This document shows, one piece after another, positions 30,996 to 62,483 of a DNA stretch of 64,000 nucleotides (positions are counted from its first letter, which is position 1; every line of letters starts with the position of its first letter). The notes beneath the pieces are model-generated. The model made no database searches. It had not been told where the DNA came from and worked only from the letters and a program-made list of their open reading frames with translations. The stretch lies in the NCBI GenBank assembly GCA_049644685.1, contig JBARSJ010000071.1:35829-99828 (forward strand), written 5' to 3'. The DNA comes from Anaerolineales bacterium. Its GTDB lineage: Bacteria > Chloroflexota > Anaerolineae > Anaerolineales > UBA11858. The position numbers and the translations under genes were made by a program.

Positions 30996-31553
30996 ATGAT
31001 TGATGTTAACGAATTAAGAAAAGGCGTGACATTTGAATTAGATGGACATATTTATAAAGTACTTGAGTATGATCATCATAAACCCGGCCGGGGAAAAGCT
31101 ACTATCCGGGTAGATGTAAGAGATCTTCGTACAGGCACACGTCTGAAGAAAAAATTTAACTCCGGGGATTCAGTTCAGGATATACGTCTCACCTTCAGGA
31201 ATGCGAAGTACATGTACAACGATGGGGAAATGTACTTCTTCATGGATGTTGAAACTTATGAACAGCCAGCTCTCCGGGGTGATATTCTGGGAGACACGAC
31301 CAAATTCCTTACTGACGAAATGGAAGTGAAATTAACCTTTTTTGAGGGCGCCCCCCTGGATATTGATCTGCCAACTACAGTAGATCAGCAGGTTTTGCGG
31401 GCTGATCCCTCCATTCGGGGAAATACTGCCACCAGTGTTACCAAATCTGTGACAACCTCAACCGGTCTGGAAGTAGATGTGCCGAACTTCGTCGAAGAGG
31501 GAGATACCATCCGGATCGATACCAGGAGCGGAGAATACGTCACCCGGGTATGA
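30996..31553 (+). CDS. efp: translation elongation factor P
   Basis: 185 aa, LRKGVTFELDG...HHKPGRGKATIRV loop; note Arg at the loop-tip position 32. Confidence 0.95.
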   Translation: MIDVNELRKGVTFELDGHIYKVLEYDHHKPGRGKATIRVDVRDLRTGTRLKKKFNSGDSVQDIRLTFRNAKYMYNDGEMYFFMDVETYEQPALRGDILGDTTKFLTDEMEVKLTFFEGAPLDIDLPTTVDQQVLRADPSIRGNTATSVTKSVTTSTGLEVDVPNFVEEGDTIRIDTRSGEYVTRV

Positions 31554-31885
31554 AAACTCCTGCTGGAATTGAATGCGGCTATTTTTTTGGGGATTATCAC
31601 CGTGGAAAAAACCATGAAGAATGCCGGCTTCTTGGCTCATCAAATCCTCCCCTGACCTGGCAGGCAAAATTGTGTGTAAACTGTCCTATCCCGGAGATAT
31701 TACGGGCAAATTCCTGTGAACACATGGAGCTGAAACCTGAACTCAAACGGCCTTTACCCTTTCTTCCCCAACAGATTCAAGTTAAAGCCTACTGTACAAA
31801 AACACATCAGGACGTTCAGGAACCACAGCTGGGTTGCGGGGAATGCCACGACCTTCCAGAGATATTTGTCAATAAGTTATCGTAA
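31550..31885 (+). CDS. Cys-rich hypothetical protein translationally coupled to efp
   Basis: ATG overlaps efp TGA (ATGA); 111 aa with clusters CGYFF, CRLL, CVNCP, CEH, CTK, CGEC. Confidence 0.55.
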   Translation: MKTPAGIECGYFFGDYHRGKNHEECRLLGSSNPPLTWQAKLCVNCPIPEILRANSCEHMELKPELKRPLPFLPQQIQVKAYCTKTHQDVQEPQLGCGECHDLPEIFVNKLS

Positions 31886-31910
31886 GTAGAAAAATAATAA
31901 GGGACCTAGA

Positions 31911-31950
31911 GGATCCCGGAGTTTCTAAAACTCCGGGATCCTTTACTTTT
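31911..31950. terminator. strong hairpin terminator (ancestrally shared by convergent efp-operon and mutL)
   Basis: GGATCCCGGAGTT-tctaa-AACTCCGGGATCC 13-bp perfect stem followed by TTTACTTTT. Confidence 0.75.
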
Positions 31951-32231
31951 ATCTCGGACCTGTTCTGCTTTGCTATCATGAAGAAAGTTTCGACTAAAGT
32001 CGTAGAAAGCTTGCCCTGAATCCTGAAGTGTACCGGGTGATAAATCACCCGGCTAAAAGCAGCGCCCTGAAGGGCTTGGATGAGATACTGCAATATAAAA
32101 TAAGCCCCCGTTCGGGGGCGCAGTTCTTAGCCCGGACATGAATGTCCGGGTATTCTTAAAGGGTTTCTTGATTTGATAGGATTGGTTTTTTAACTGTCCC
32201 TTTTCCTTAAATTATCTCGGACCTGTTCTGC
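31949..32231. repeat. 263-bp period: 20-bp direct repeat TTATCTCGGACCTGTTCTGC (31949-31968 and 32212-32231) bracketing an insertion-like 243-bp segment
   Basis: Both copies identical; the right copy is the last 6 codons plus stop of mutL. Confidence 0.85.
32039..32152. repeat. structured ~113-nt repeat, copy A (second copy at 41336-41448)
   Basis: Shares GATAAATC-CCCGGCTAAAA-GCGCCC...GGGC...TTAGCCCGG-hairpin-CCGGGT blocks with copy B; three local hairpins. Confidence 0.75.
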
Positions 32232-33945
32232 CAAATTTCCTTTCCAGCAAATCAACCGACAAATGAATCATTGTTGGACGTCCATGGGGACATGTCCGCG
32301 GAGATATGCAGGCTTCTAAATCCAGCAGCAATTGTTTACTCTCCTCAGGAGATAAGATCTGCCCGGCTTTTACTGAAGCCCTTTTGCAGATCCTGGCAAT
32401 AATTTTCTGTTCGATATTTTTCTCAAGCGGGGTTTCATCTTCCTCAAGATCTTCAACTGCCGCTCTGAGGATTCCTTCAGGGGATGTGCCCTGCAGCAGC
32501 GCTGGTACAGCCCGGATAACAAAAGCGCCTGGTCCAAAGCCTTCCAGGTCAAATCCTAATTCCCCAAACAATTCAAGATGTTCATTCACCAGATCTGCGC
32601 TGCTGGGGGATAACTCAACCACCACAGAATCGAGCAAAATCTGAGAAGGCACGCTTTTATCTTTGATTGAGATAAATTTCTCGAATAAAATTCTTTCGTG
32701 AGCAGCGTGCTGGTCAATCAGGTACAATCCATCGGGACCTTCCGCTATCAGATAGGTTGCGGCTACTTGCCCGATCAGCCGTAGAATTGGTGTTCCCATT
32801 CCTGCGCTGATCTGCCCGGGTTCCACTAAAGCGCCAAAAGAACCATCATCTTTCGCCATCTCCCAGGCCGGGTCTATCTGCCGCTGAACATCCCGATGAT
32901 CCGGCGCTGGACCACTCCATAACCTGACTCCCCCCAGATTACCTGCCCCTGGAACAGGAGTGTTGGCCAACAAAGCCCGTCTGACCGCCCTCCCCACGCC
33001 GCGAAAGATTTCCCCCTTATCCTCAAATCTCACTTCTGCCTTGGTTGGGTGCACATTGACATCCACCTTGTCCGCTGGGAGTTCCAGAAAGAGAACCGAA
33101 ATGGGATATCTGCCCTTCATTAATAAGGTGTGGTAAGCCTGAGTCAGGGCTTTTGTCAGGGCAGGATCCTGGACCGGGCGCTGGTTGACAAAGAAGAGGA
33201 TTTCCCGCCGGTTAGATCGCGTTAATCCCGGAGGGCTGATAAATCCATTCACCGCCAGCAGATCATCCTCGGAAAGAACCTCTATCATCTGCCTGGCTGT
33301 TCCAACGCCGTATACCGCAGTGATCACTTCCCTGAGATCTCCACTGCCGCTGGTTTGAAATACCAGCTCATCATCCTGATAAAGTTTCAGACGGACCCCG
33401 GGGTTTGCAAGCCCATAGCGGCTGACAATATCATTGATATGCCTTTTCTCTGTCCGATCGGTCTTGAGGAATTTTAATCTCGCAGGTACATTGTATAACA
33501 GGTGCTCTACCCGAACGGTTGTCCCGGGCGGTATTCCCAGCTGAGTGGATGGTTTAATTTCTCCTCCCTCTACTTTTATACTGGCACCCAGGTCCTCACG
33601 CTGGACCCGGGATATCAGTGACAGCTGAGAGACAGATCCAATCGAGGCTAAAGCTTCACCGCGGAAACCCAATGTAGAGACCCGGAACAAATCCGCCGCA
33701 TCTCGCAATTTGCTAGTTGCGTGACGGTGCACAGCCAGTGTCAGTTCCTCAGCCGGGATTCCCGCCCCATTGTCCACTACTTCAATCAGGCGTTTTCCTG
33801 CCTCGCGGACCAGAATTGTGATCTGATCTGCCCCGGCATCAAGCGCATTCTCGATTAATTCCTTCACCACTGAGGAGGGACGTTCCACAACCTCTCCGGC
33901 AGCAATTTGTGAGGCAACTTCTTCTGACAATATTTGGATGGACAT
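32212..33945 (-). CDS. mutL: DNA mismatch repair protein MutL
   Basis: MSIQILSEEVASQIAAGEVVERPSSVVKELIENALDAG GHKL ATPase N-terminus, GFRGEAL; ATG at 33945 preferred over 33972. Confidence 0.93.
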   Translation of the reverse strand: MSIQILSEEVASQIAAGEVVERPSSVVKELIENALDAGADQITILVREAGKRLIEVVDNGAGIPAEELTLAVHRHATSKLRDAADLFRVSTLGFRGEALASIGSVSQLSLISRVQREDLGASIKVEGGEIKPSTQLGIPPGTTVRVEHLLYNVPARLKFLKTDRTEKRHINDIVSRYGLANPGVRLKLYQDDELVFQTSGSGDLREVITAVYGVGTARQMIEVLSEDDLLAVNGFISPPGLTRSNRREILFFVNQRPVQDPALTKALTQAYHTLLMKGRYPISVLFLELPADKVDVNVHPTKAEVRFEDKGEIFRGVGRAVRRALLANTPVPGAGNLGGVRLWSGPAPDHRDVQRQIDPAWEMAKDDGSFGALVEPGQISAGMGTPILRLIGQVAATYLIAEGPDGLYLIDQHAAHERILFEKFISIKDKSVPSQILLDSVVVELSPSSADLVNEHLELFGELGFDLEGFGPGAFVIRAVPALLQGTSPEGILRAAVEDLEEDETPLEKNIEQKIIARICKRASVKAGQILSPEESKQLLLDLEACISPRTCPHGRPTMIHLSVDLLERKFGRTGPR

Positions 33946-34068
33946 GAAGATATTATAACGGAGTGGGGACAATGAATGGGGAAAAATCTCCCCGATTTCT
34001 TAGTCAGTTTTGCTTGATATCATTCGCGCGGTTCATCCTGCAGGATCAGGATCAGGTATAATGCGGAT

Positions 34069-40146: not shown

Positions 40147-41178
40147 ATGCGAAATTTCATCATCGCCGTAGGCTTGCTGCTGGGAGTGATCTTCTTAGCA
40201 AGCAATTTTACCGAAATCGAACAGATCACAGCCACCCTCCAGCGGGGAGATTGGCATTTTATTCTGCTATCTGTCTTATTGGTATTGCTCTGGCTTGTCA
40301 ATATGGCAGCATCCTATAAAACAATTTTTCATGTAATCGGAATCGAGGAAACTTTAGGTCAGCTGCTGATTCTGACTGCCGCCGCCACGTTTATCAATGT
40401 GGTTGCACCTTCCGGAGGGGTTGGCGGGGTGTCTGTTTTCATCGCTGATGCCAGGCAAAAGGGAAAAACCGGCGCCAGGGCATTGGTCGCAGGAGCTTTG
40501 TTTGTAATTTTTGATTATCTGGGATTTTTTCTGCTATTAAGTCTGGGTTTAATTGTCCTCTTCCGCAGGAATATCCTTGGCGGAACAGAGATTGCCGCTT
40601 CGGTGATCTTACTTCTTATGTTCACAGGCATGAGCTTGCTGCTCTATCTGGGGTTTAAATCCGAACAAGCGCTCGCTGATGCGCTGGCCTGGTTAGCCAG
40701 AGCTGGAAACCGCCTCTTGAAACCATTACGACGCCGCAAAGAATTCAGCGAAGAAGGAGCAAGGTCCATTGCCCATGACGCGGTAGGTGGACTTAATGAA
40801 CTGCGCAATCGCCCCCTGGAATTAATTTATCCCTTCCTTCTGGCAATCTCCAATAAATTACTCCTGCTGTTAATCTTTTTCCTGATCTTTAAAGCATTTC
40901 AAGTGCCGGCATCCATAGGCACCCTTATCGCGGGCACGAGTCTGTCTTATTTATTCCTGATTGTCTCCCCTACCCCTTATGGTTTGGGTGTCGTGGAGGG
41001 CGTCTTAACCCTTGCCCTTCGTTCAATGTATATTCCGGTCAGCGATGCGCTGGTGATTACCATAGCATACCGGGGAGTGATCTTCTGGATCCCCTTCCTC
41101 CTGGGCGCAGTGTCTGTCCGCTGGGTAGGAAGGCCGACAGAGGAGAAACTCGACAGATCACCAGAAGCAAGCGATTAG
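40147..41178 (+). CDS. flippase-like / LPG-synthase-TM (UPF0104) family membrane protein
   Basis: 343 aa polytopic membrane protein; family call from overall pattern only. Confidence 0.65.
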   Translation: MRNFIIAVGLLLGVIFLASNFTEIEQITATLQRGDWHFILLSVLLVLLWLVNMAASYKTIFHVIGIEETLGQLLILTAAATFINVVAPSGGVGGVSVFIADARQKGKTGARALVAGALFVIFDYLGFFLLLSLGLIVLFRRNILGGTEIAASVILLLMFTGMSLLLYLGFKSEQALADALAWLARAGNRLLKPLRRRKEFSEEGARSIAHDAVGGLNELRNRPLELIYPFLLAISNKLLLLLIFFLIFKAFQVPASIGTLIAGTSLSYLFLIVSPTPYGLGVVEGVLTLALRSMYIPVSDALVITIAYRGVIFWIPFLLGAVSVRWVGRPTEEKLDRSPEASD

Positions 41179-41255
41179 AATCGCAGCTAGCTGTAGAACC
41201 CATCTTCGGGGGAGAACAGCCTTTATCTTCTCAACTGCCCTGATATTCCAAGATT

Positions 41256-41310
41256 AAAGGAAGCGGTATCCTTCTGAGGATACCGTTTCCAGGGTTGTGG
41301 GGCTCCTGCT
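41256..41310. repeat. 55-bp direct repeat, copy 1 (contains 13-bp-stem hairpin)
   Basis: AAAGGAAGCGGTATCCTTCTGAGGATACCGTTTCCAGGGTTGTGGGGCTCCTGCT; 52/55 identical to 41501-41555. Confidence 0.9.
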
Positions 41311-41335
41311 CTAGCGTTGTAAACAAACTCCGTGG

Positions 41336-41448
41336 GATAAATCCCCCGGCTAAAAACTGCGCCCGTTGGGCTTACAATCATAGACTGAGTATTAGTTTAG
41401 CCCAATTTATTGGGCGTTGTTTTTAGCCCGGTCATTCATGACCGGGTG
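41336..41448. repeat. structured ~113-nt repeat, copy B
   Basis: Collinear with 32039-32152; hairpin stems differ by paired substitutions (CCCGGTCAT..ATGACCGGG vs CCCGGACAT..ATGTCCGGG). Confidence 0.75.
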
Positions 41449-41500
41449 AGAGAGGGAATGGTTTCCTTTCTCTACCGATCAAGGGAGGGATCTCAATATC

Positions 41501-41555
41501 AAAGGAAGCGGTATCCTTCTGAGGATACCGCTTCCGGGGTTGTGGGGCTCCCGCT
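41501..41555. repeat. 55-bp direct repeat, copy 2 (perfect hairpin GGAAGCGGTATCC-ttctga-GGATACCGCTTCC)
   Basis: Lies just downstream of the minus-strand gene 41589-42104; on the minus strand the hairpin is followed by TTTGATATT. Confidence 0.9.
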
Positions 41556-50896: not shown

Positions 50897-51050
50897 AAAT
50901 CCAACAATCCTCACTATTTATTAATTACTGTCCTTCATCTCCCAGTCCCCCAGTCACCTGTCCTGAGTAGCGCGACAGAGGAGCGCGTATCGAAGGGCTC
51001 AGTCCCAATTTCACACCCTTTCTCCCTCCGGCGTATCCAGCCGGTCCTCA

Positions 51051-51209
51051 CTATTTACTACTTACTGAATACTGATTACGGGGATGGCATTTTTCATGGA
51101 AGAGAATGAATCGTCTGATCCAGCTGGAATAAGCCTGTTCGGTACGGTAGGCGTAATTTTTTCGGCGGATGGTATCCCGTACCTGGTCAAGCAGTTTCTT
51201 TTTGGTCAT
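51051..51209 (-). pseudogene. intI: integron integrase (IntI) remnant: N-terminal ~43 codons only
   Basis: Not in ORF track. My translation: MTKKKLLDQVRDTIRRKNYAYRTEQAYSSWIRRFILFHEKCHP|RNQYSVSSK*. The part before | matches the IntI N-terminal SAM-like domain (IntI1 [38 protein letters not shown]); RBS AAGGGGG. Confidence 0.8.
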
Positions 51210-51223
51210 CAAACCCCCTTAGA

Positions 51224-51251
51224 TTGTGAAAAGTTGCTGTTATGCTATACT
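51224..51251 (+). promoter_or_regulatory. candidate cassette promoter (Pc-like)
   Basis: TTGTGA (51224-51229) - 16 nt - TATACT (51246-51251), pointing into the cassette array just outside the intI start. Confidence 0.35.
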
Positions 51252-51293
51252 TTGATTATATACTACTCAACAAGGAGAAAACACTGTACTGCG

Positions 51294-51379
51294 CGATAAC
51301 ACAATAATATATTACATACCAATAGTAGGATAACAACCTAATGTGTTATCCCGCAGGTGAAACATAATTAACGTTAGGC
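51294..51379 (+). other. candidate attI region ending in core site GTTAGGC
   Basis: GTTAGGC at 51373-51379; core-like GTTATC boxes at 51294-51300 (inverted), 51328-51334 (inverted), 51345-51351 (direct); GGATAACA-n8-TGTTATCC inverted repeat 51328-51351. Confidence 0.55.
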
Positions 51380-51401
51380 AGCCATTCGATCGGGGATAAG
51401 T

Positions 51402-52064
51402 ATGTCACAGATACTACGAATTCTAATCTACGTCATATTTGGGATCCCACTCATCTTAATCGTGCTGCATACGATAGTGCGAATCATCAGGCACTTTTAT
51501 AAGTTTCCAATGCCCGAATTCTTTGCCAATATCATCGACAATCCACTTCGCCGGCGAATCCAGCCCCCAAATAACACCCCTACCAGGCATAAGATTGAAC
51601 CAGGAATGAAAGTTTTGGAAGTAGGTCCAGGAAATGGAAGCTATACAATGGCAACTGCCCGTAGAGTTGGGGAGAATGGAAAAGTCATAACAATAGATAT
51701 CGAACCGAAGATGATTGATCGAGTTATGAAGAGAGCCCAAATTGAGGGTATTAAGAATATAGAGGCTCGCGTTGCGAATGTATTTGACCTTCCTTTCGAA
51801 GATGGTTATTTCGATGCAGTTTATATGATTACTGTGATTGGTGAGATCCCCACTCCAGAGAGAGCGATGAGAGAGTTCTATCGGGTTTTATCGCCGCAAG
51901 GCACATTGTCATTCAGTGAACTATTAATGGATCCTGATTATCCGCTCGCAGGTTCGATCGAAAAAAATGCACATTCGGTCGGCTTCCGACTACAGGAAAA
52001 GGTCGGGAACTTCTTCCATTACACATTAATTTTCGAGAAGGATAATTTATTGAAAGCTGCCTAA
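51402..52064 (+). CDS. cassette 1: class I SAM-dependent methyltransferase with N-terminal TM helix
   Basis: VLEVGPGNGSYT (motif I), ITIDIEP, FDAVYM; stop TAA lies inside the attC R'' box GCCTAAC. Confidence 0.85.
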   Translation: MSQILRILIYVIFGIPLILIVLHTIVRIIRHFYKFPMPEFFANIIDNPLRRRIQPPNNTPTRHKIEPGMKVLEVGPGNGSYTMATARRVGENGKVITIDIEPKMIDRVMKRAQIEGIKNIEARVANVFDLPFEDGYFDAVYMITVIGEIPTPERAMREFYRVLSPQGTLSFSELLMDPDYPLAGSIEKNAHSVGFRLQEKVGNFFHYTLIFEKDNLLKAA

Positions 52065-52153
52065 CCCCCGCTTCACCCGACAGCCGGTTAGGGCGCCCAG
52101 AGTTAGAGAACTGGAAAGGAAGACCCGGCTGCGGGTGAGCTCATCCGTTATGC
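52059..52153 (+). other. attC site 1 (95 bp)
   Basis: R'' GCCTAAC ... R' GTTATGC; arms CACCCGACAGCCGG / CCGGCTGCGGGTG pair leaving an unpaired A. Confidence 0.85.
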
Positions 52154-52162
52154 TAAATCCGA

Positions 52163-52570
52163 GTGCTTGGAATGCAAATCTTTACAATGACTGATATTAC
52201 GATGAAGAAAGAGAAAAAATATTCACCGAGTGGCATTATTACTATTACATTACTGCTTTCTCTCGCAGTGGTCAATGCTTTTTGGTTAATCGCAAGTTGG
52301 CATGGTGGTGCTTTGATAGCCCTGGCATTCTATTTAGTAATATCTTATCTTTGCCTCAGAAGGCAACATTTCCAAGCAGGTGTAATCGCGGGTATCCTCG
52401 GATTTGGAATTCATATATATGAGTTATTTGTACTGGGGACGAGTGAATTGATAGGAATTGATCAAGTTTACTTCTACGTGAATCTGATTCTTCCTATTCC
52501 TCTCACTATCACAAGTTATTTGGCATCTCACAAGGAATCTGCTGGACATGAAGAGAAAACAAATTCTTAA
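52163..52570 (+). CDS. cassette 2: small 4-TM membrane protein, unknown function
   Basis: Hydrophobic helices; start uncertain (GTG 52163, ATG 52172/52187/52202). Confidence 0.6.
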   Translation: MLGMQIFTMTDITMKKEKKYSPSGIITITLLLSLAVVNAFWLIASWHGGALIALAFYLVISYLCLRRQHFQAGVIAGILGFGIHIYELFVLGTSELIGIDQVYFYVNLILPIPLTITSYLASHKESAGHEEKTNS

Positions 52571-52583
52571 ACTGAGAGATTAC

Positions 52584-52669
52584 GCATAACCCACGCTCCA
52601 CCCGAACCTTCGATACGCCCATTCGCTACTCTCAGGGCTTCTCAGGACGGGTGAGCTTTTCCGTTAGCC
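52584..52669 (+). other. attC site 2 (86 bp)
   Basis: R'' GCATAAC (reverse complement of cassette-2 start GTTATGC) ... R' GTTAGCC; loop consists of a CCTTCG...CTCAGGAC element. Confidence 0.8.
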
Positions 52670-52713
52670 AGCATAATAGCTCATATATCTGACCAATATA
52701 GGAGGAGGAATTC

Positions 52714-53394
52714 ATGCTTACAAACAGTCAGCTGATCAGAATAATTTCCCTCTTTTCCTTGCTTGTGTGTTTGCCCTTCATCACCGCTTGTTCAAACGCT
52801 GAGCAGGATCTCCCCCTGGAGCGGGTATCCCTGTCGAAACACGCTTGCATAAGTGGTAGCAGCTTTACCCCACACCTGCCATTAGGCGTCAATGATCAAA
52901 TCAAGGCACCGGCTCTCGCCGGAGGTACTGTCAGGTCCGGTGATTTCCTGATTTCACTCTGGTTAATTTGCGATCCATCCCTTGCCTCAGATGACCCGGA
53001 TTTCCCAGAATACTCATGGCAAGAGTTCAGCGAAGTGCGGTATCTGGGCTTCCTTTCTGGTTGGGAGTATTTAGGGGACCCCCCGGACCAGGAGATCAAG
53101 GAATCTTTGACAATCAATGGGGAGGTCATAAGTGGGCACATAATCGCATCTCACACCGACCCTGAAAGAAGCTTGTCTAGAGGCGAGGGGCATGCAAGTT
53201 ATGGTCCGATCAACACCGAAAACCAAATCGTTGCCCAGGCCCTTGCCGCTGGAGAACCCGTTGATATCGTACTTACTATCTTTGGTTCTAAAACCCTTGC
53301 CGAAGTGCACCTGCGCGCATCGTTTGAGGAAACGCCGGATGGCTACCGCCTTCTCAGTGCCGAGATCCTGACGAACACTGGAAAACTACCATAA
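52714..53394 (+). CDS. cassette 3: lipoprotein of unknown function
   Basis: Signal peptide plus lipobox LPFITAC; RBS GGAGGAGG. Confidence 0.7.
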   Translation: MLTNSQLIRIISLFSLLVCLPFITACSNAEQDLPLERVSLSKHACISGSSFTPHLPLGVNDQIKAPALAGGTVRSGDFLISLWLICDPSLASDDPDFPEYSWQEFSEVRYLGFLSGWEYLGDPPDQEIKESLTINGEVISGHIIASHTDPERSLSRGEGHASYGPINTENQIVAQALAAGEPVDIVLTIFGSKTLAEVHLRASFEETPDGYRLLSAEILTNTGKLP

Positions 53395-53552
53395 TTGATA
53401 ACAGGAGGGCTTTACCGCCATGTTGATTGGGTATACCTACCATCACTTGATCGGGTATCATTCCCCATAATTATTGGTGCCCCGGTGTTTTACAATCTTC
53501 TCTTACCGCTGTTTTCTTTTTCCTTAATGGTCTCCCGTTTTATCTGAATGCG

Positions 53553-53652
53553 GGCTAACCCCCGCTCCACCCGACAGCCAGGGGCGGACCGGGGACCGAA
53601 AACGGAAGACCGGGAAAAACAATCTGGCTGCGGGTGAGCTATTCCGTTGGGC
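53553..53652 (+). other. attC site 3 (100 bp)
   Basis: R'' GGCTAAC (reverse complement of cassette-3 start GTTAGCC) ... R' GTTGGGC; arms CACCCGACAGCCAG / CTGGCTGCGGGTG. Confidence 0.85.
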
Positions 53653-53737
53653 GGCTGCGTTGCATGGTCAAGCTTCGAGAGAGCCAAAATAGTTGAGCAA
53701 TATACAGATGGCAGTCACAGCAGGAGGTCATGATCTG

Positions 53738-54397
53738 ATGAAATCAAATGTTGAGATAATCCAAGATATCGTTGAGCAGGTCGTTAATCAAAAGAAAATC
53801 GATATATATGACCAGTACATCAGCGAGGATTACATCTCGCGAGGATCTCCATATGTCGGTATGGGTTTTTCTGTAGACAGCTCAGGGAATAAGCACATCA
53901 TTGAAATCATTGTCCCTGGCAGCCCTGCCGAGGGGAAGCTCCAGGTGGGAGACGAGCTGCTCTGGGCAGAGGATGAACACCAGCGTTGGGTCACTTATGA
54001 GGATATAAAGCAGCGTATTTTGCAGAGTTATCGGGGCAACAAATACAAGGTGGGAGTACGTCGGGGTAATCAGACTCTCGAGGGTGAATTGACCAAAGAT
54101 TTATTCAAGGGCTTCGATACCCCCAAGGATCAGGCAAAGTCGGATCTGCGGGAGTTTATGACGAAAGAATTTCCAGATTTAAAAGCCACCATAAAGCAAA
54201 TTCTCGCAGATGGGGATATGGTTGTTTGTTTGCTGGAGTATCGCGGTAACCACGCTAACTTCGAGCGAGAGGCAGTTTGGCGAGAGGCCTGGTTTGTACG
54301 CCTGTCTGAAGGGAAAATCGTCGAGGACTGGACTGTTTTTGATGGAACTTCCTACTTTAATCAGCTTGGCTTCCAGATCATTCCGCCTAGCACCTGA
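53738..54397 (+). CDS. cassette 4: SnoaL/ester-cyclase-like protein with PDZ-like insertion
   Basis: ATG 53738 sits 10 nt after AGGAGG (ORF track starts at TTG 53693); NVEIIQDIVEQV... and DMVVCLLEYRGNH...GKIVEDWTVFD flank VPGSPAEGKLQVGDELL. Confidence 0.65.
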   Translation: MKSNVEIIQDIVEQVVNQKKIDIYDQYISEDYISRGSPYVGMGFSVDSSGNKHIIEIIVPGSPAEGKLQVGDELLWAEDEHQRWVTYEDIKQRILQSYRGNKYKVGVRRGNQTLEGELTKDLFKGFDTPKDQAKSDLREFMTKEFPDLKATIKQILADGDMVVCLLEYRGNHANFEREAVWREAWFVRLSEGKIVEDWTVFDGTSYFNQLGFQIIPPST

Positions 54398-54489
54398 TAC
54401 ATCTCGAATTTAAGATCTTTTCCTGCGATCGATTTTGGTATGTTGCAGGAAGAATGGGAAAATAGGATTTGAAAATAGTACTAAACGCC

Positions 54490-54615
54490 GCCCAACCACG
54501 CGTTAACGCTGACCCGGTTGTCGCCACGCTCCAGCCTGCTAGGTCTCGCGTAAAATCTTTTCGTCGTGCGGGGTTTAGAAGTCAAACCGCTGGGTAGGTT
54601 ACGCAAATGTTGGGT
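54490..54615 (+). other. attC site 4 (126 bp), divergent sequence class
   Basis: GCCGCCCAAC is the exact reverse complement of cassette-4 start GTTGGGCGGC; R' GTTGGGT; arms GCGTTAACGCTGACCC / GGGTAGGTTACGC with unpaired T and G. Confidence 0.75.
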
Positions 54616-54666
54616 TGCAGAAAATCAAAGATCACATTTAGAACATCAAAGTCATAAGGAGCATCA

Positions 54667-55578
54667 ATGTGCACATGTGAGAAATCGAAGATTGTATTTG
54701 ATACGACCACGTTAGAGAAGATAGTCAATGATCCCCAATGGGTTCTTGAAAATGAAGAGAAATTTTGGGCTGAGTACCGAGCTCAGATATTGACACGTAA
54801 ATGGGCAGAACATGTCAAATATGAAATTCCATACGAAGAATGGAGAGAGAAGATTGAAGGGTGGAAAAACTTATCGCTAGATGAACGAGAAAACCATGAA
54901 TTAATGAAGGTCGCCCAGCGGATACTATCAGCAAAAGATGAGTTTCTAGAGAAAGCATTGCCGCATGATTGTTCATTTTTGCCGGATGGCGTTGATTTGA
55001 GCGTAACAGTGCAGTTCACAGCATTTGTTCCACCATTTGCGTTTGCGATGGAAGACCTTGTAATCGATGTGGCCTCGAAGTATTGGAAAGGTAATCCAGA
55101 ACATGTATTGAATTTGCTTGTTCATGAAATATTTCATGTGGGTTACAGTTATTATCTAACAATACAAAATGAAAAGGAATTAGTTGAAGAAAGTTTATAT
55201 AAAATTCTGGACAATATTGTGAATGAAGGAATATGCACATATGTAGGGTATTGTGCTTTGCCAATCTTTCCAGTAGAAGATGAGCGGGATTATCGAATGC
55301 TGGAATATAATGATGAAGTTCACAGGTTGTTTGCGGATACGAATACTGTACTTTCGCAATATGGCATATTATCTGATGAAGAATTACAAAAACTATCTTG
55401 GGATAAGGGTGTCATTGGACGGGCATATTACGTAACAGGTGCCCATATGTGCAAAACAATTGATGAGACTAAGGGCAGAGATGCATTGATTGAAGTTTAC
55501 TCAAAAGGACCAATCTCAATTATTGAATATTACAACACAGTTGCAAATGATGATCTGAAAATATTACTTCCTGAATGA
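54667..55578 (+). CDS. cassette 5: putative HExxH zinc-peptidase-like protein (DUF2268-like)
   Basis: LLVHEIFHVGY motif; RBS AAGGAG; family assignment tentative. Confidence 0.6.
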   Translation: MCTCEKSKIVFDTTTLEKIVNDPQWVLENEEKFWAEYRAQILTRKWAEHVKYEIPYEEWREKIEGWKNLSLDERENHELMKVAQRILSAKDEFLEKALPHDCSFLPDGVDLSVTVQFTAFVPPFAFAMEDLVIDVASKYWKGNPEHVLNLLVHEIFHVGYSYYLTIQNEKELVEESLYKILDNIVNEGICTYVGYCALPIFPVEDERDYRMLEYNDEVHRLFADTNTVLSQYGILSDEELQKLSWDKGVIGRAYYVTGAHMCKTIDETKGRDALIEVYSKGPISIIEYYNTVANDDLKILLPE

Positions 55579-55591
55579 TAAGACAAGTGCA

Positions 55592-55722
55592 ACCCAACCC
55601 TCCATGTAGCCGACCCAGCGGGGCTGGGATGGTGAGCGTGGCGAAAATTGCACTCGAAGGTTCTAGATTACAATATTCGGGATTGAAAATCCCCGCTGGA
55701 TCGGCTAATGAAATCGTTATGC
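55592..55722 (+). other. attC site 5 (131 bp), divergent sequence class
   Basis: GCAACCCAAC is the exact reverse complement of cassette-5 start GTTGGGTTGC; R' GTTATGC; arms CATGTAGCCGACCCAGCGGGG / CCCCGCTGGATCGGCTAATG with unpaired G. Confidence 0.75.
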
Positions 55723-55748
55723 GGTAAAAAGTTTTATCTAGGTAAAAA

Positions 55749-57053
55749 ATGGTTAAGAAAAATGTAATTAATATCTTTTGCTTGGTCCTTGTTCTTTCAA
55801 GCTGCTCACCAGTCGACAAACATAACCCCGATCAGCCAAGCACAGAAGAACGTATCGATGATCTTTTCACTCGCTATACCAATGCAGGTGAGTTTTCTGG
55901 CTCCATCCTAGTCGCTAAAGGAGATCAAGTTCTCTTTAGGAATGGCTATGGTTTTACGGATCGGGAAGAACAAATTCCCAATACCCCAGATACACAGTTT
56001 AGTATCCAATCAATTACTAAACTTTTCACCTATGCCTCTGTAATGATGGAAGTTAAAGCAGACCATATTTCACTAAATGACCCAGTTGAGCAATATTTCC
56101 CCGGTTTTCCCAATGGTGACAAGATCACGATTGACCACCTCCTCCACCATCGGTCGGGACTCTTCCATTACCCTCATGAAGTACCCGATCATGAATACGG
56201 ATCACTCTCGACCCCCATCACAATCAATGCTCTGATCAAAGAATTCGAAGGCTATCCGTTGAAGTTTGAGCCTGGAGAACAATACGGATACAGCAACGCA
56301 GGCTACTCTATACTGGCGAGAGTAGTTGAGAATCTGAACGATACACCTTTTGACGAGTACCTTGAGGCAAAACTCTTCGCTCCCACGGGAATGCACCAGA
56401 CTACAGCTGATTGGGAAACAGCCTCTCAGGATATTGCAATAGGGTACGAGAAAGTGGATGGTGAGTTCATTCGCAGCTCAGCCGATCACCCATCCCACTT
56501 CATTGGGTCCGGAACAACCTACACCACGATTGACGATATGTATAGCTGGTACAAAGCCGTTTATATCAACGGCTCGATGTCTGAATTCTCATCTGGGGGA
56601 GGAGATGGTGGCGGGATGGGATACCGAGCTATATTCTGGCCTATACCCTCCTTCGATCTGGTAATCATTATCCTGAGTAACTATCGGGATGCACCTGTTT
56701 ATGAGCTTGTAACTGAGGTGGTTGATATTCTGTTAGAAGAGACCACATTCATTGATCATGATCCAAAAACCTTGGAAGCTTTAATTGGTCACTACATGGC
56801 TGATTCGGGTTATGGAGTATTCAACTACCGGATTTATGGATCAAATGAAAAATTATTTGTGTCAGTCACCGATTTCCTTGGTGTATCACGCGTCTATGAA
56901 CTCCGCCCCATCTCACCAAATCAACTCGCATTCTTGACGGATGGACGGCTCACGGGCCAAACGCTCACATTCAAATGGGGGGAAGATGCCAATTCTCACG
57001 AGTTTCTGTTCGACATGAACTTATTGCAGTTGAAGGCCATACGCGATGATTAA
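55749..57053 (+). CDS. cassette 6: beta-lactamase-fold serine hydrolase (class C/PBP-like) lipoprotein
   Basis: Lipobox VLSSC; SxxK (SITK), YxN (YSN); 434 aa. Confidence 0.8.
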   Translation: MVKKNVINIFCLVLVLSSCSPVDKHNPDQPSTEERIDDLFTRYTNAGEFSGSILVAKGDQVLFRNGYGFTDREEQIPNTPDTQFSIQSITKLFTYASVMMEVKADHISLNDPVEQYFPGFPNGDKITIDHLLHHRSGLFHYPHEVPDHEYGSLSTPITINALIKEFEGYPLKFEPGEQYGYSNAGYSILARVVENLNDTPFDEYLEAKLFAPTGMHQTTADWETASQDIAIGYEKVDGEFIRSSADHPSHFIGSGTTYTTIDDMYSWYKAVYINGSMSEFSSGGGDGGGMGYRAIFWPIPSFDLVIIILSNYRDAPVYELVTEVVDILLEETTFIDHDPKTLEALIGHYMADSGYGVFNYRIYGSNEKLFVSVTDFLGVSRVYELRPISPNQLAFLTDGRLTGQTLTFKWGEDANSHEFLFDMNLLQLKAIRDD

Positions 57054-57118
57054 TATTGGGATAGATTGGTTGCGATTGATCAAGTTTTGATACTGTTATT
57101 AATTGTAAGAATTCGACC

Positions 57119-57244
57119 GCTTAACCCCCGCTCCACCTGACTGCCGGTTTTTTACTGTTATCCCGCTTTTATTCCCCCTTATCGGTTTCAGTTCTATAAT
57201 CAATACCAGAAACACCTGGCAGCAGGTGAGCTCATCCGTTATAA
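57119..57244 (+). other. attC site 6 (126 bp)
   Basis: ACCGCTTAAC vs expected ACCGCATAAC (9/10 to cassette-6 start); R' GTTATAA; arms CACCTGACTGCCGG / CCTGGCAGCAGGTG. Confidence 0.8.
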
Positions 57245-57283
57245 AGCAATTAGGAATACGGCTAACTCCATGGAGGTAAATTC

Positions 57284-58108
57284 GTGGATACAAAGAACGT
57301 TACCCTTCTACTATTCTCCCTCTTCTTCCTTTGCAGTGCCTGTCAAAACACTTTACCTGAACCCAATCCAACCCAAACCATTTCTTTGACACCTATCGAT
57401 TCTCCCATCCCAACACAGGTGAAACCAACAGCTGTCCCGGAATCAGAAGTAATCCCAATCAATGAAGACTGGAATGTATATAAAAATCACCGTTTGGGAT
57501 TTTCAATCAAGATCCCAGCCAACCCGATCTGGAGCAGTGGTGCTCAATGTTCAGAGTTAAATTTACCAGAAGAAGGCTTTTTACCAGTTGCCGTCATTGA
57601 AAGAGAAGATCGGATTTACATCACCACAGAAACAGCTCTTCAGTTCCCATATTCAGAACGGGAGGAGTCCCTCGAGGTTAAGCCCGCCAGGGGAGAGAAT
57701 TGTGAGATTGTTAAAGTTACCCTGGAACTCCTCGAAAACGAAGATTATTTTCCTTTGGATCTCTGGGAAATTGCTATCAAACCAATAATGTCAGAAAATG
57801 ATCTCGAGTTTTTCGTAGACGAATATTACGGTGATTGCTATTATGTAACAGAAAAAACTCCCCTGAGCGACAGGGGATTAATAAAAGTAAAAATCAGTGG
57901 TAATGAAGATCCTAATGTAGATCCTGACGCTACCTGCGTGGTGCGCTGGGGTTATCTCTATTATTATTCAGTGGAGTTCTCAAGAGCTGCCACATGGATG
58001 TTCGGCCAGAGCTTGCATTTTTGCGCCAGCGGAGCCAACCAGGATTGTTATGATAACGATATGCTGCGCAGCTTTGAGTTCATTCCTGTCATATATCCAC
58101 CGGAATAA
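57284..58108 (+). CDS. cassette 7: Cys-containing lipoprotein of unknown function
   Basis: GTG start 7 nt after GGAGGT; lipobox FLCSAC. Confidence 0.7.
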   Translation: MDTKNVTLLLFSLFFLCSACQNTLPEPNPTQTISLTPIDSPIPTQVKPTAVPESEVIPINEDWNVYKNHRLGFSIKIPANPIWSSGAQCSELNLPEEGFLPVAVIEREDRIYITTETALQFPYSEREESLEVKPARGENCEIVKVTLELLENEDYFPLDLWEIAIKPIMSENDLEFFVDEYYGDCYYVTEKTPLSDRGLIKVKISGNEDPNVDPDATCVVRWGYLYYYSVEFSRAATWMFGQSLHFCASGANQDCYDNDMLRSFEFIPVIYPPE

Positions 58109-58112
58109 TGTT

Positions 58113-58277
58113 TTATAACCCCCGCTCCACCCGACAGCCAGGTTGGATGGCAATTATAATGGGATGGGCATTAAATCTTTAATAACAAGACCAGCAGACT
58201 TTTTGTTTTATACTGATTAAGGGCTGCGGGTGCCCTTCGCTGTACTCAGGATGCTTCGCGAAGCTCATCCGTTAGGC
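58113..58277 (+). other. attC site 7 (165 bp) with nested 29-nt insert
   Basis: R'' TTATAAC ... R' GTTAGGC; GGGTG[CCCTTCGCTGTACTCAGGATGCTTCGCGA]AGCTCATCC. Confidence 0.8.
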
Positions 58278-58440
58278 TTTTTTTTTAATAATCATTGTTT
58301 GGCCTTTGGATCATGTGGGTTATGCAGAAACTATAAACGATGTGATTGTCAGTCACAATAAGACAAGTTGAAACAATAAAAGTATAATGCCATCACCATT
58401 CACAAGTTCGATATGAAAAATCTATTTAGGAGAATAATCA

Positions 58441-58779
58441 ATGGAAAGTTCTAATAAAACAAACCATCTGGCAATTGTTAGTTTTGTTAGTGGGATGATA
58501 GCCCTCATATGTATTGTGTTAATATTTGTATTTTACAACTCGGCAGAAACCGCAGAGGGCATCATCAACATCACAGATGGAATAATAATGCCTGTGCGAA
58601 ATCTCTGTGTGATAGTGACGCTATTAACGGGTATTCTTGCGGTTAAAGATATAAAGAAAACGGGCGGAACTAAAAAAGGAAAAATATTTTCCTGGTTCGG
58701 CATAGTTGTTGGAGCTGGCTGGATCCTCTTTGGATTGCTTGTTGGCATAACATTTCTCATAGCTGAAATTCTTCACTGA
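58441..58779 (+). CDS. cassette 8: small 3-TM membrane protein (DUF4190-like)
   Basis: RBS AGGAG; HLAIVSFVSGMIALICIVLIF-type helices. Confidence 0.6.
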   Translation: MESSNKTNHLAIVSFVSGMIALICIVLIFVFYNSAETAEGIINITDGIIMPVRNLCVIVTLLTGILAVKDIKKTGGTKKGKIFSWFGIVVGAGWILFGLLVGITFLIAEILH

Positions 58780-58812
58780 ATCCTTAAGCTGAGAATAGAA
58801 TCGCCAAGAGCC

Positions 58813-58967
58813 ACCTTACTCCCGCTCCACTAGACAGCAAGATGGACGCTGCGCTCACGACAGGGGTAAAGAGACGGAAGACGGGAGACCGGAGGTCGCT
58901 TCGCTTCCGACCGGGTAGACTGATACTGATACTTAGATCCTTCTGCGAGTGAGTTCATCCGGTAGGC
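58813..58967 (+). other. attC site 8 (155 bp), both core boxes mutated
   Basis: ACCTTAC in place of RYYYAAC and GGTAGGC in place of GTTRRRY; internal blocks CCCGCTCCAC...GAGTTCATCC conserved. Confidence 0.65.
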
Positions 58968-58970
58968 ACT

Positions 58971-59567
58971 TTGAAACAAGATATTTTGGTCGAGATAATC
59001 GATATGGGAAAACAAAGCCTTAGCCTCCTTGAACGCTTTTCTTTGAGGGCAGAAGAATTGATAATGACACGATTGGTGCCAAAGGACAATCCAGGCCCCA
59101 TATTCAAGAGACTGTTCAAAACACCGATATTCTTTTACCGTATTGGCCTTCCTCTGTTTAGCAGCTTCGTCCTGTTATTGACTACAACCGGGCGAAAGAG
59201 TGGGAAACAGCGATACACGCCGCTTGAATATCAACGCGAGCAAGGAACGGGTAATCCAATCATCATGGCAGGTTGGGGGGGAAAAACGGATTGGAGGCTC
59301 AATATTAAGGCAAATCCGCATGTTCATGTTCAGATCGGACAAGAATGCTTTGACGCCATCGCTGAACCTCTTAGCGACGAAGAAATCGCAGCAAGGTTGA
59401 CAGAGGCCATGAAGATAAATCCAAGGAGTGCGAAGATATAGTCACGGTGGGTGGGAGAAAGTGTGAGTCTAGCGGATCCTGGCAGTGTAGCCAGAGCTGT
59501 GAAGTATTTTCCATGCTTTCGCTTGAAACCGATCAATGAATATGTTGGAAGTGATCAAAGCACCTAA
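58971..59567 (+). pseudogene. cassette 9: deazaflavin(F420)-dependent nitroreductase-family (DUF385) gene interrupted by in-frame TAG at 59439-59441
   Basis: LLLTTTGRKSGKQRYTPL, WRLNIKANPHVHVQ; the frame continues after TAG to TAA (59565-59567, inside R'') and encodes ...VKYFPCFRLKPI, resembling the family C-terminus. Confidence 0.65.
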
Positions 59568-59802
59568 CCTCCGCTCCACCTGACTGCCGGGATGGTTCGC
59601 TGCGCGAACGACCGGGAGAAAGAGACCGATGACCGGGGGAGGTTTCACCTCCGACCGGTTTTACTGGGAAAGAAATACTGATTACTGACTTTTGTCCCGG
59701 ATGCGGGTGCCCTTCGCTGTACTCAGGATGCTTCGCGACCCTTCGTCTCCCCCTTGGCTACGCTCGGGGCTCGCTCAGGACAAATGAGCTCATCCGTTAG
59801 GA
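59562..59802 (+). other. attC site 9 (241 bp) with two tandem nested inserts
   Basis: R'' ACCTAAC ... R' GTTAGGA; arms CACCTGACTGCCGGG / CCCGGATGCGGGTG; inserts at 59710-59738 and 59739-59781. Confidence 0.8.
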
Positions 59803-59846
59803 TGCAGCTTTGATTAGATCAACCAATAAAAAGGAAGGTCGGAAAG

Positions 59847-60758
59847 ATGACAAATAAAGATGGAGAACCAAAACCTTCAGAAACCGCCTTATTTGCTGCC
59901 TTGCGTAGAACCATTGCAAATATAGACTTCAATAATGAGAATTTTGGACCAGACAATATGGCCGAATATTTTTTACCCCCTCACTTTAGATTTTTTCTAA
60001 AATTCAAAAAAATACGAGCAAATACCAAAGCAAAATTAAATGACTTTTTGCCTGGGTTGAATGAATACATGATTGCTAGAACAGCCTATTTTGATCGGCT
60101 ATTCAATGATGCTTTACACAACGAAACACCTCAAATTGTACTGCTTGGCGCAGGATACGATACACGAGCGTATCGTTTTGCAGAGTTAAATCAAGGGACA
60201 GAAATATTTGAATTGGATATTGGTCCAACCCAAGAGAGAAAAAAGAAATGTTTAAAAAAGGCAAAGATAGCCATCCCCCAACAAGTCACTCTCGTTCCAA
60301 TAAATTTCAATAAAGACTCATTGAAAGATGTTCTAGAAAAAGCGGGATTTCAAGACCATAAAAAAACTCTCTTTGTATGGGAAGGGGTGAGCTATTACCT
60401 CGATGCGGAATCAGTCAATTCAACCTTGGATTTCGTCAGCCATCTTCCAAATCATGAAAGTTCTATAGCATTTGATTACACTATTTCAATTTCAGAAGAA
60501 AAAATAAATGATTATTATGGCGTAAAAGAATTTTCTCAAACGATGAAGGAGCAACATGCAGATGAGAAACTCATGTTTTCCATTGATGAAGATGAAACAG
60601 AATCATTTTTAGAGCTGAGAGGGTTGAATATAGTTGAACATTTGGATAGTGAAGAGATCGAGAGAACATTTTTAATAGAAGAAAATGGATCACTAATAGG
60701 TCAAATTACCGGGCATTTTCGTTTTGTATTGGCTACACAAAAAAAGCTTCAAGAGTAA
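59847..60758 (+). CDS. cassette 10: SAM-dependent O-methyltransferase of the LCMT / TIGR00027-like family
   Basis: QIVLLGAGYDTRAYRF, WEGVSYYL motifs; RBS AGGAAGG. Confidence 0.8.
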   Translation: MTNKDGEPKPSETALFAALRRTIANIDFNNENFGPDNMAEYFLPPHFRFFLKFKKIRANTKAKLNDFLPGLNEYMIARTAYFDRLFNDALHNETPQIVLLGAGYDTRAYRFAELNQGTEIFELDIGPTQERKKKCLKKAKIAIPQQVTLVPINFNKDSLKDVLEKAGFQDHKKTLFVWEGVSYYLDAESVNSTLDFVSHLPNHESSIAFDYTISISEEKINDYYGVKEFSQTMKEQHADEKLMFSIDEDETESFLELRGLNIVEHLDSEEIERTFLIEENGSLIGQITGHFRFVLATQKKLQE

Positions 60759-60764
60759 TGAGAA

Positions 60765-60924
60765 ACCTAACCCCCGCTGCACTTGTCAGCCAGGGGCAGA
60801 CCGAGGACGGATGACGGAAGACCGAAGCCTGGAAACTTACGCCAGGCAGCAGGCGGTCTTCGCAAACCTGTCCTGAGTGAAACGAAGAGTAATCAAAGGG
60901 CATCGCTAAGCTCATCTGTTAGGC
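60765..60924 (+). other. attC site 10 (160 bp) with inverted nested insert
   Basis: R'' ACCTAAC ... R' GTTAGGC; arms CACTTGTCAGCCAGG / CCAGGCAGCAGGCG; insert between GGCG and AGCTCATCT. Confidence 0.8.
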
Positions 60925-60930
60925 ACTAAA

Positions 60931-61383
60931 ATGGCAAAAACTAATCCAATATCAAAAGAATTGATCGCACCGTGCGGAATGAATTGTGCCATCTGCAGCC
61001 GGTATCTTTCCTACCTCAATAATTTGAATCGCAGCCAGTGTATTGGTTGTCGTCCGCGGAATGAGGTTTGTAAATACCTATTTCAAAAATGTACTGGCAT
61101 AAATCATTCTTCAAAAGGAGATGCTGCCTTTTGCTATGATTGCGATCAGTTTCCTTGTAAGCAAATAAATCGGATGGATGACCGCTATAGAAAAAATTAT
61201 GCGATGAGCGTGAAGGATAATTTGATATTTATAGACCAGATGGGAATCAAGAAATTTATTAAAGAACAACAGCAGAAATATCAATGTTCTAAATGTGGTA
61301 ATCAAATATCAATACATAATAGAAAATGTTTCAATTGCGATGAGGTAACACGCTTGGTTGAAAAAAGTAGTAAGAATTATTAA
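60931..61383 (+). CDS. cassette 11: Cys-rich protein (DUF3795-like)
   Basis: CGMNCAICSRY, CIGCRPRNEVC, CYDCDQFPC, CSKCGN, CFNC clusters; ATG only 6 nt after the R' box. Confidence 0.65.
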   Translation: MAKTNPISKELIAPCGMNCAICSRYLSYLNNLNRSQCIGCRPRNEVCKYLFQKCTGINHSSKGDAAFCYDCDQFPCKQINRMDDRYRKNYAMSVKDNLIFIDQMGIKKFIKEQQQKYQCSKCGNQISIHNRKCFNCDEVTRLVEKSSKNY

Positions 61384-61397
61384 TGATTTATCCTAGT

Positions 61398-61600
61398 ACC
61401 TAACCCCCGCTTCACCTGACCCGGCACCTTCGGTGCGGTAAGCAGTAGTTTTGTAAGTAATAAGCAGTTTAAAAATTCAGATTAATGACAGCGTTAGTGC
61501 TGAGATTGGTTCTATTTACTATTTACTACTTACTAATTACTAAGCCGAGCGGGTGCCCTTCGCTGTACTCAGGATGCTTCGAGAAGATCATCCGTTAGGT
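61398..61600 (+). other. attC site 11 (203 bp) with heptamer tract and nested 29-nt insert
   Basis: AGTACCTAAC vs expected AGTGCCTAAC (9/10); R' GTTAGGT; GGGTG[CCCTTCGCTGTACTCAGGATGCTTCGAGA]AGATCATCC. Confidence 0.8.
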
Positions 61601-61613
61601 CGCACAGAATTCT

Positions 61614-62195
61614 ATGATGATTGATGTAATACAAATTCTGTTTCTGTTTTCTGTCATACTTGAAATGATATATTTAGTTTTATTTATTCTGACGAAAAAG
61701 TTACCAGGCTTTCGCTTCTGGCCTCCCCCAAAGCCTCAATCTTGGCAATTCTTTGTGTCTTGGTTAATTGCGGGTTTGGTGGCTGTAAACTTTCTTGTCT
61801 TGGGACTGTTAGATTTCGACAGTTTCATACTCCCCAACTTAAAACAAAGGCTTCCATTTGCCATCAGTCTCTTTTTGATAGGTTCATTGTTAGGTTCTTG
61901 GGCATTCGGGACATTTGGGCTGAAGAATACAATTGGTGTTGATAATAAGCTAATCACAGGTGGTCCATATAAATATTCTCGGAACCCACAATACATTGGG
62001 GACAGTTTGAACATTGTTGGATATATGGTATTAACGAATTCATGGATGATCTGGATTATCGGTTTGTTAGGTGTATTATTGAATCTTCTTGCACCGTCTA
62101 TTGAAGAACCCTGGCTAGAGGAACGGTATGGAGAAAGATACCTTGAATACAAACGCAGGGTTCCGAGGTTCTTTGGTAAAGTTGGGACGGGATAA
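61614..62195 (+). CDS. cassette 12: ICMT/PEMT-family membrane methyltransferase
   Basis: GGPYKYSRNPQYIGD, multiple TM helices, C-terminal EEPWLEERYGERYLEYKRRVPRF. Confidence 0.8.
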   Translation: MMIDVIQILFLFSVILEMIYLVLFILTKKLPGFRFWPPPKPQSWQFFVSWLIAGLVAVNFLVLGLLDFDSFILPNLKQRLPFAISLFLIGSLLGSWAFGTFGLKNTIGVDNKLITGGPYKYSRNPQYIGDSLNIVGYMVLTNSWMIWIIGLLGVLLNLLAPSIEEPWLEERYGERYLEYKRRVPRFFGKVGTG

Positions 62196-62200
62196 GCGCG

Positions 62201-62370
62201 TCCTAACCCCCGCTCCCCTTCGACTGTGCTCAGGATCTGCGACACCTGACCGCCTATAAACTGCCTGAGTGACTTGGAGATTATATGATGGAGTGAAGCG
62301 AGATTCGCCAAATTGGAATATACTGAATACCGATTACTGATTACTGAAAACTAGTGTCAGGGGGCAGGTG
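62201..62370 (+). other. attC site 12, 5' half plus L' arm only; R' box not found
   Basis: GCGTCCTAAC vs expected GCGACCTAAC (9/10); 27-nt insert 62216-62242 in the left arm; GGCAGGTG at 62363-62370 is followed by another element instead of AGCTCATCCGTTAGG. Confidence 0.55.
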
Positions 62371-62453
62371 CCCTTCGATTCTGCTACGCTCCACTCAGGA
62401 CAGGCTTGTCGAGGGGCTTTGCGAATCAGGGGAACAAATTATCACCTGATTGT

Positions 62454-62483
62454 TTACCACTAACCACAATAGCAGTATATAAT
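62454..62483 (+). promoter_or_regulatory. candidate internal promoter upstream of MFS gene
   Basis: TTACCA - 18 nt - TATAAT (62478-62483), 38 nt upstream of ATG 62521. Confidence 0.35.

Follow-up and report, generated by a model that had tools for sequence, protein, structure and literature searches.

Insertion of a 243-bp repeat mosaic with duplication of the mutL 3' end in a lineage of uncultured Anaerolineales

In one lineage of uncultured Anaerolineales, a 243-bp block has been inserted at the extreme 3' end of mutL, and the last 20 nucleotides of the gene now stand on both sides of it. Within the stretch of DNA that we analysed (64,000 nucleotides, referred to here as the window), the 20-mer TTATCTCGGACCTGTTCTGC occurs in two exact copies, at 31949-31968 and 32212-32231, just as a preliminary description of this DNA had reported, and a pattern search of the 64 kb found no further site with up to three mismatches. 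Two matches to the 20-mer were obtained in none of 100 shuffles; the sole other alignment returned by a repeat scan (40515-40534, 80% identity, 4 mismatches) is taken to be a chance similarity. The repeat begins precisely at the mutL stop codon, and the bases outside its two copies differ (t and a on the left, t and c on the right), so that it is exactly 20 bp long.

The mutL gene lies on the minus strand (32212-33972 as an open reading frame from the first TTG, with a likely ATG start at 33945) and matches the Pfam families DNA_mis_repair, MutL_C and HATPase_c_3. Copy 2 of the repeat, on the same strand, forms its working end, with the codons for RTGPR followed by the stop. MutL proteins of close and distant relatives end in FGR[TRK]G[PAS]x-stop, and since copy 2 (…FGRTGPR-stop) matches this conserved C-terminus, it represents the native gene end; translation and conservation thus agree with the earlier identification of this copy as the GRTGPR-stop of mutL. 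Exact look-ups with the protein from either candidate start gave no match, and a MutL scan of metagenomes retrieved relatives of at most 60% identity only, in which the C-terminus is conserved and efp is not found downstream. The final residue differs between close relatives (R, M, G, S or I) behind a fixed FGRTG (P0001-P0065), a pattern for which recurrent disruption at the end of the gene, or simply a lack of constraint, may be responsible.

Upstream of the spacer lie efp (30996-31553, plus strand) and, overlapping it, a 111-codon open reading frame without a Pfam family (ORF111; 31550-31885, plus strand). The ancestral bidirectional terminator, a hairpin with a perfect 14-bp stem and a 3-nucleotide loop, is located 3' of this operon at 31911-31941 and formerly came directly after mutL. 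The preliminary description gave this hairpin a stem of 13 bp and placed it 8 nucleotides from copy 1; the hairpin is indeed there, with the longer stem and a distance of 7 nucleotides. Copy 1, the last 20 nucleotides of mutL and now non-coding, sits beside the terminator at the same offset from its T-run as the single copy in the empty sites described below.

Empty and filled sites in relatives

The names attached to homologues of this MutL place the organism among uncultured Anaerolineales. We compared the mutL-efp spacer in contigs from relatives graded by their MutL, with identities computed over 2.7 kb. Empty sites were found in L110, L100 and L103, which are respectively 96.4%, 89.7% and 78% identical to the window and do not contain the inserted segment (31969-32211). 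Both L100 and L103 present the order ORF111 stop, terminator hairpin, T-run, one 20-mer and mutL, which bears out the proposal that an insertion cut mutL off from a terminator shared by the two convergent genes. At the L110 junction, GGGATCCTTTACTTTTATCTCGGACCTGTCCTGC is followed immediately by CAAATTTCC, with a single 20-mer and no insert; this contig has the T-run variant of the window (TTTACTTTT) and the same last codon, AGA, as both window copies, and its window-type terminator hairpin is reduced to the right arm and T-run before the single 20-mer. The left arm and loop of the L110 terminator have been replaced by another hairpin with a 13-bp stem and about 33 nucleotides (L110 2790-2885). 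Set against the empty sites, the window has gained 263 bp, that is, 243 inserted and 20 duplicated, and these sites confirm both the insertion at the extreme end of mutL and the preservation of the coding end by the duplication.

The same 263-bp gain is found in L096, L097 and L111, which are 97-99% identical to the window. These three assemblies are independent of that of the window, making four in all (samples ERZ25073473 for L096, ERZ23498689 for L097 and L104, and ERZ25073498 for L111; the empty L110 comes from SRR22936138). Since four independent assemblies have this structure in common, an assembly artefact is ruled out. In L096, copy 2 differs from copy 1 by one synonymous change (1 nucleotide), so the two copies of the 20-mer evolve independently. 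The structure is thus neither common to all relatives nor built on a frequent genomic repeat, two circumstances that had been named as arguing against an insertion.

A further state is seen in L107/L108 (91.7% identical), where the spacer is filled with the core and inner arms known from the window (31987-32165 there against L107 1757-1935, 92% identity) and the junction with the mutL stop is that of the window, but the left 20-mer is not present. After the terminator T-run, L107 has instead 113 nucleotides of different sequence, and the right part of its insert includes one extra small repeat. Ordered by pairwise identity as ((((window, L111, L096, L097), L110), L107), L100), L103, L101, the spacers are filled with the 20-bp repeat in the window, L111, L096 and L097, empty in L110, filled without the left 20-mer in L107, empty in L100 and L103, and occupied by an IS200 element in L101. 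The last sense codon is AGA in both window copies and in L110, and AGG in L107 and L100. On the simplest history, which depends on one synonymous site, the duplication would postdate the divergence from L107, and so possibly the first arrival of the core.

The inserted block and its core repeat

The 243-bp block is a mosaic of non-coding, probably selfish repeat DNA, not autonomous and probably not a miniature integrase element. It begins with TTTGCTATC and ends with CCTTAAA, and it folds far better than shuffled sequences on both strands (z about -5). A search of Rfam with the insert gave nothing at the gathering threshold and noise only at the E-value threshold. Terminal inverted repeats were sought in both inserts, at mutL and at a second locus (locus B), with negative or marginal results; at mutL none is significant, the best end-to-end match being internal and equalled in 30 of 500 shuffles. 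No recognisable gene is present: the one open reading frame of at least 40 amino acids lying mostly within the insert (31869-32093, minus strand, 74 amino acids) belongs to no Pfam family. With 243 bp and no gene, the block is, as initially remarked, far too small for autonomy.

Four segments can be told apart. A left terminal segment of 18 nucleotides (31969-31986), which is not common to L107, is followed by a left arm of 46 nucleotides (31987-32032, plus strand) that is common to L107, looks like the right-hand end of an IS200/IS605 element and contains the small hairpin CGACTAAAGTCG followed by GTAG. Next comes copy A of the core repeat (32033-32151, plus strand), a REPIN-like double palindrome of 118-119 nucleotides with two inverted hairpin units, which have CTAA/TTAG feet, and two inner hairpins; this is the structured repeat announced for the insert, and its second copy, copy B, lies at 41330-41447. 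The right segment has 60 nucleotides (32152-32211), of which only the first 14 are clearly common to L107. No second copy of the outermost 18 nucleotides on the left, or of the 46 on the right, turned up in the window or in a small sample of related loci amounting to about 1 Mb. Within the core, a consensus scan picked out a terminator-like hairpin on the minus strand (32104-32119; GCCCCCGAACGGGGGC followed by TTATTTTATA), the first such site on the mutL strand, 92 nucleotides past the stop, and this hairpin with its T-run may serve mutL as a substitute terminator. In the last hairpin of the core, the two central loop bases (32139-32140) are GA in the window and TC in L096, L107 and copy B; as TC is the reverse complement of GA, a flip of the hairpin loop is suggested.

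The core belongs to a family of dispersed repeats. Copies A and B are 72% identical, and another Anaerolineales MAG contributes three copies, two on the contig L003 and one on L015, with 87-89% identity to copy B. The core was thus observed at five independent loci (two each in the window and L003, one in L015), in addition to weak or distant variants that come from Chloroflexia MAGs and from locus B in the relatives, and all copies are intergenic. A two-anchor core pattern gave 15 matches in a genome collection from which the window's own genome is absent, a number that we estimate to be about equal to the chance expectation; the real family members among them were those of L003 and L015 and weak Chloroflexia matches only. 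A covariance model of the core recognises its members on both strands, with 113-135 bits in one orientation and 48-70 bits for the same position in the other, and it detected no further copy in about 1 Mb of related loci. In the structure drawn from eight sequences, 90% of cells are paired and 6 pairs present compensatory changes; the covariation score was reached in none of 500 shuffles, and shuffled and slid controls collapse. TTAG precedes the right hairpin in 8/8 sequences, and CTAA follows the left hairpin in 7/8, including a Chloroflexia variant, the divergent copy of L106 being the one that differs. Flanking sequences differ from copy to copy, so the core is a discrete unit; no copy has a duplication abutting it, and no flanking repeats were found around the copies of L003 and L015. 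In L003 (1994-2750), the two copies stand 304 nucleotides apart, preceded by a TPP riboswitch (Rfam RF00059, 66 bits) and followed by the start of an ORF, and hence lie inside a regulated leader.

Classical REP families have GTAG/CTAC at the foot of the hairpin, and the REPINs described to date are mainly proteobacterial. The core shares with REPINs its two inverted hairpin units with a 4-nucleotide foot motif and a spacer between them, which can fold into one long hairpin, its extragenic location between convergent genes, its several dispersed copies, the lack of an abutting duplication, and compensatory changes that maintain the hairpins. It departs from them in a foot motif, CTAA/TTAG, that is analogous but not identical, in its two extra inner hairpins and in its host phylum, Chloroflexota, while a 20-bp duplication like the one enclosing the larger block is foreign to REPINs. 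REPINs are doublets of REP sequences mobilised by RAYT tyrosine transposases (PMC3116915, PMC3337134). According to tblastn, no relative of the Y1 transposase of L101, and with this query no RAYT gene, was found in the 64-kb window. Judged from its sequence, the core may be called REPIN-like, full membership being a matter of a RAYT gene and a genome-wide census.

A link to IS200 elements comes from the same spacer in other relatives. L101/L102 (76% identical) contain an IS200-type element between mutL and efp (L101 8312-9107), whose tnpA encodes a Y1 transposase of 138 amino acids (NCBIfam IS200/IS605 transposase, 63.6 bits). The old terminator is partly lost in the L101 spacer. Positions 31985-32012 of the window align with L101 8957-8986, 38-67 nucleotides downstream of tnpA (30 nucleotides, 90% identity, E about 1e-4). 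Solo hairpins resembling the tnpA-upstream (left-end) side of this element occur in L107, L106 and L112; the insert of the window has one right-end-like module, and the left-end-like hairpin is not there but in L107, in the 113 nucleotides that follow the T-run. The insert resembles IS200/IS605 elements and their small derivatives with hairpins (PATEs) in having an end-type hairpin, no terminal inverted repeats and related solo hairpins in neighbouring spacers of relatives, but it differs from them in its single end-like module and its perfect 20-bp duplication, and no transposase gene is present in the 64-kb window. A guide-like or ωRNA reading of the 20-mer, by way of the IS200-like end, was set aside: there is no tnpB, the known system has a different geometry, and the repeat at the second locus measures 62 nucleotides. 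The mutL-efp spacer is a hotspot for hairpin-bearing elements, with a whole IS200 in one relative and a larger core-bearing mosaic in another, and this one spacer has been struck independently by at least three related elements.

At the second locus, core copy B (41330-41447, plus strand) lies between convergent genes for an LPG-synthase-TM-family protein and TrmO, and is bracketed by a direct repeat of 62 nucleotides. The left copy of this repeat (41249-41310) has a terminator-like hairpin and is 92% identical to the right copy (41494-41555; family D6), which has a minus-strand terminator-like hairpin downstream of TrmO. Both copies are present at locus B of L107, where the repeat can be read from the alignment as extending to approximately 170 nucleotides. 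L106 (95% identical) has the right copy only, together with a fragment resembling the end of the L101 IS200 that lies upstream of tnpA. Modules at this locus differ among L106, L107 and L112, and no empty site was found in these three, the spacers of L106 and L107 being larger and different and the contig of L112 ending before the spacer.

Origin of the duplication

Is the 20-bp repeat a product of the insertion itself? We tentatively prefer to read the two 20-mers as a target duplication created at insertion around a pasted-in 243-bp block. This reading is placed first because the copies are perfect, the closest empty site of the same allele contains a single copy and the repeat directly abuts the block; the direct repeat that brackets core B also counts in its favour. 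Breaks set 20 bp apart on the two strands would have opened the target, the block would have been joined into the opening, presumably with the help of a putative trans-acting enzyme, and fill-in of the single-stranded flanks would have produced two identical 20-mers. As the duplicated stretch reaches the stop codon, mutL keeps its full reading frame, and the GC hairpin and T-run of the insert would then have taken over from the lost terminator.

Several observations count against a target duplication. There are no terminal inverted repeats and no second copy of the ends of the block, no enzyme was found, the cores of L003 and L015 have no flanking repeats, and in L107 this junction is occupied by the core and its inner arms without the left 20-mer. 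The AGA/AGG pattern points the same way, and the component elements are of kinds that normally leave no duplication: IS200/IS605-like and REPIN-like elements insert without duplicating their target. At locus B of L107, about 170 nucleotides would be, to our knowledge, longer than almost any transposase stagger.

Known elements with a target duplication offer partial parallels. Like DDE-type MITEs, the block is abutted by a duplication that is single in the empty site, although 20 bp is an atypical length, the terminal inverted repeats are lacking and no other copy of the whole unit exists in the window or in the 1 Mb or so of related loci. The repeats here, 20 bp and 62 bp at the second locus against the usual 2-14 bp, recall IS1549/IS1634 and the IS1202 subgroup; those elements, however, measure 1.5-2 kb and have DDE transposases and terminal inverted repeats, neither of which is seen here. 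Target duplications of 8-514 bp are documented for IS1549/IS1634 (PMC2266710) and of more than 15 bp for the IS1202 subgroup (PMC10132070).

Possible too, if on the unlikely side, is a secondary origin of the duplication, in which the mosaic entered without one by a Y1/HUH-type route, the state represented by L107, and a later recombination added the left 20-mer. This could have been an unequal or illegitimate exchange between filled and empty alleles or with a sister copy, or a tandem duplication of 263 bp from which the first element copy was then precisely lost. Such an origin would account for L107, with its homologous core, inner arms and right junction and no left 20-mer, and for the absence of target duplication in the component elements. 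The distribution of AGA and AGG is also most parsimoniously explained by a substitution followed by a duplication, although the codon argument comes down to one synonymous site. Filled and empty states are patchy along the identity-based order, and the spacers are unstable, as indicated by the replaced left arm of the L110 terminator, the differing modules at locus B and the approximate 170-nucleotide repeat of L107. This origin would, however, require at least two rare events or else a donor allele outside the sample, no intermediate allele was found among the relatives compared, and the clean pattern is the one expected from a single insertion with target duplication.

It is doubtful that the block and its counterpart at 41.3 kb constitute an undescribed non-autonomous element of Chloroflexota, mobilised in trans, that would insert beside the terminators of convergent genes and produce target duplications of 20 to 60+ bp regenerating gene ends and terminators, nearly harmless to its host.

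The preliminary description had likened the 20-mers to the traces of att-site-specific integration. The 20-mer would then be an att core, and the 263 bp either a tiny trans-mobilised element or the deletion remnant of an integrase-type element that targeted the mutL 3' end and carried its own copy of the gene end. Integrase-type elements typically integrate in the 3' end of a gene, regenerate its coding end and leave direct repeats of 15-60+ bp. The present locus resembles such elements and their remnants (for example e14 in icd, or CIME-type cis-mobilisable elements) in that the repeat reproduces the 3' end of its target gene and has the stop codon as its exact starting point, the coding end is intact and empty sites contain a single copy; filled and empty alleles coexist among close relatives, and the presence of related inserts here in two lineages would be a consequence of site specificity. 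The contrast lies in the insert itself, 243 bp of repeat DNA made of a REPIN-like core and an IS200-like hairpin rather than element-end sequence, with no integrase or fragment of one in or next to it; a truncated integron-type N-terminus, at a distance of 19 kb, is the window's sole trace of a tyrosine recombinase. The full element found at this spot in L101 carries an IS200 transposase, not an integrase, and the homologous insert of L107 lacks one repeat copy. Core B is bracketed by an unrelated 62-nucleotide repeat, a poor fit to one integrase with one att site. Nor did a full-length integrase element flanked by the same 20-mer come to light: the 20-mer had 0 matches in viral contigs, and the whole segment matched none of the plasmids and phages compared. 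We consequently regard the att interpretation as improbable. Chance similarity or an assembly artefact as the source of the 20-mer pair is practically out of the question in view of the 100 shuffles, the four assemblies and the empty sites that fit to the base.

The event is real but small, and the finding a modest one of a kind already known, namely small non-autonomous palindromic repeats in intergenic spacers. Its value lies in a base-by-base case, complete with empty sites, of small hairpin repeats colonising a tight spacer between convergent genes with both genes left undamaged, and in the addition of a REPIN-like repeat family to Chloroflexota, a poorly studied phylum. If long duplications were regular in this family, they would point to integration by a chemistry that has yet to be described in elements of this sort; otherwise, the event would fall within the ordinary and well-documented turnover of intergenic repeats.

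Other repeats in the window

The part of the window from 51080 to 64000 looks like a chromosomal integron-like cassette array. Its genes are unrelated and on the same strand (methyltransferase, SnoaL, DUF5700, beta-lactamase fold, LCM methyltransferase and MFS), and its spacers contain imperfect palindromes, nine copies of which are found in the region (families D1, D2, D5 and D8), with ends that can be read as attC-like, for instance GCCTAAC...GTTATGC at 52059-52150. From 51212 down to about 51080, the minus strand encodes the N-terminal 45 or so residues only of an integron-type integrase (Phage_int_SAM_4, E = 1e-12), and GTTAGGC at 51374-51380 is a possible attI point. Because of this array, an attC or integron origin of the core was considered; it was rejected on reading the core sequence, which has no RYYYAAC/GTTRRRY ends.

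A separate family of small repeats, organised around CCTGTCCTGAGY...GAAGGG (families D3 and I1), is often nested beside the core or terminators. Its sites are located at 50938-51004, 58211-58276, 59688-59753 and 61534-61599 in the window, at 2138-2204 in L003, and at about 1990-2040 and 11200-11260 in L107.
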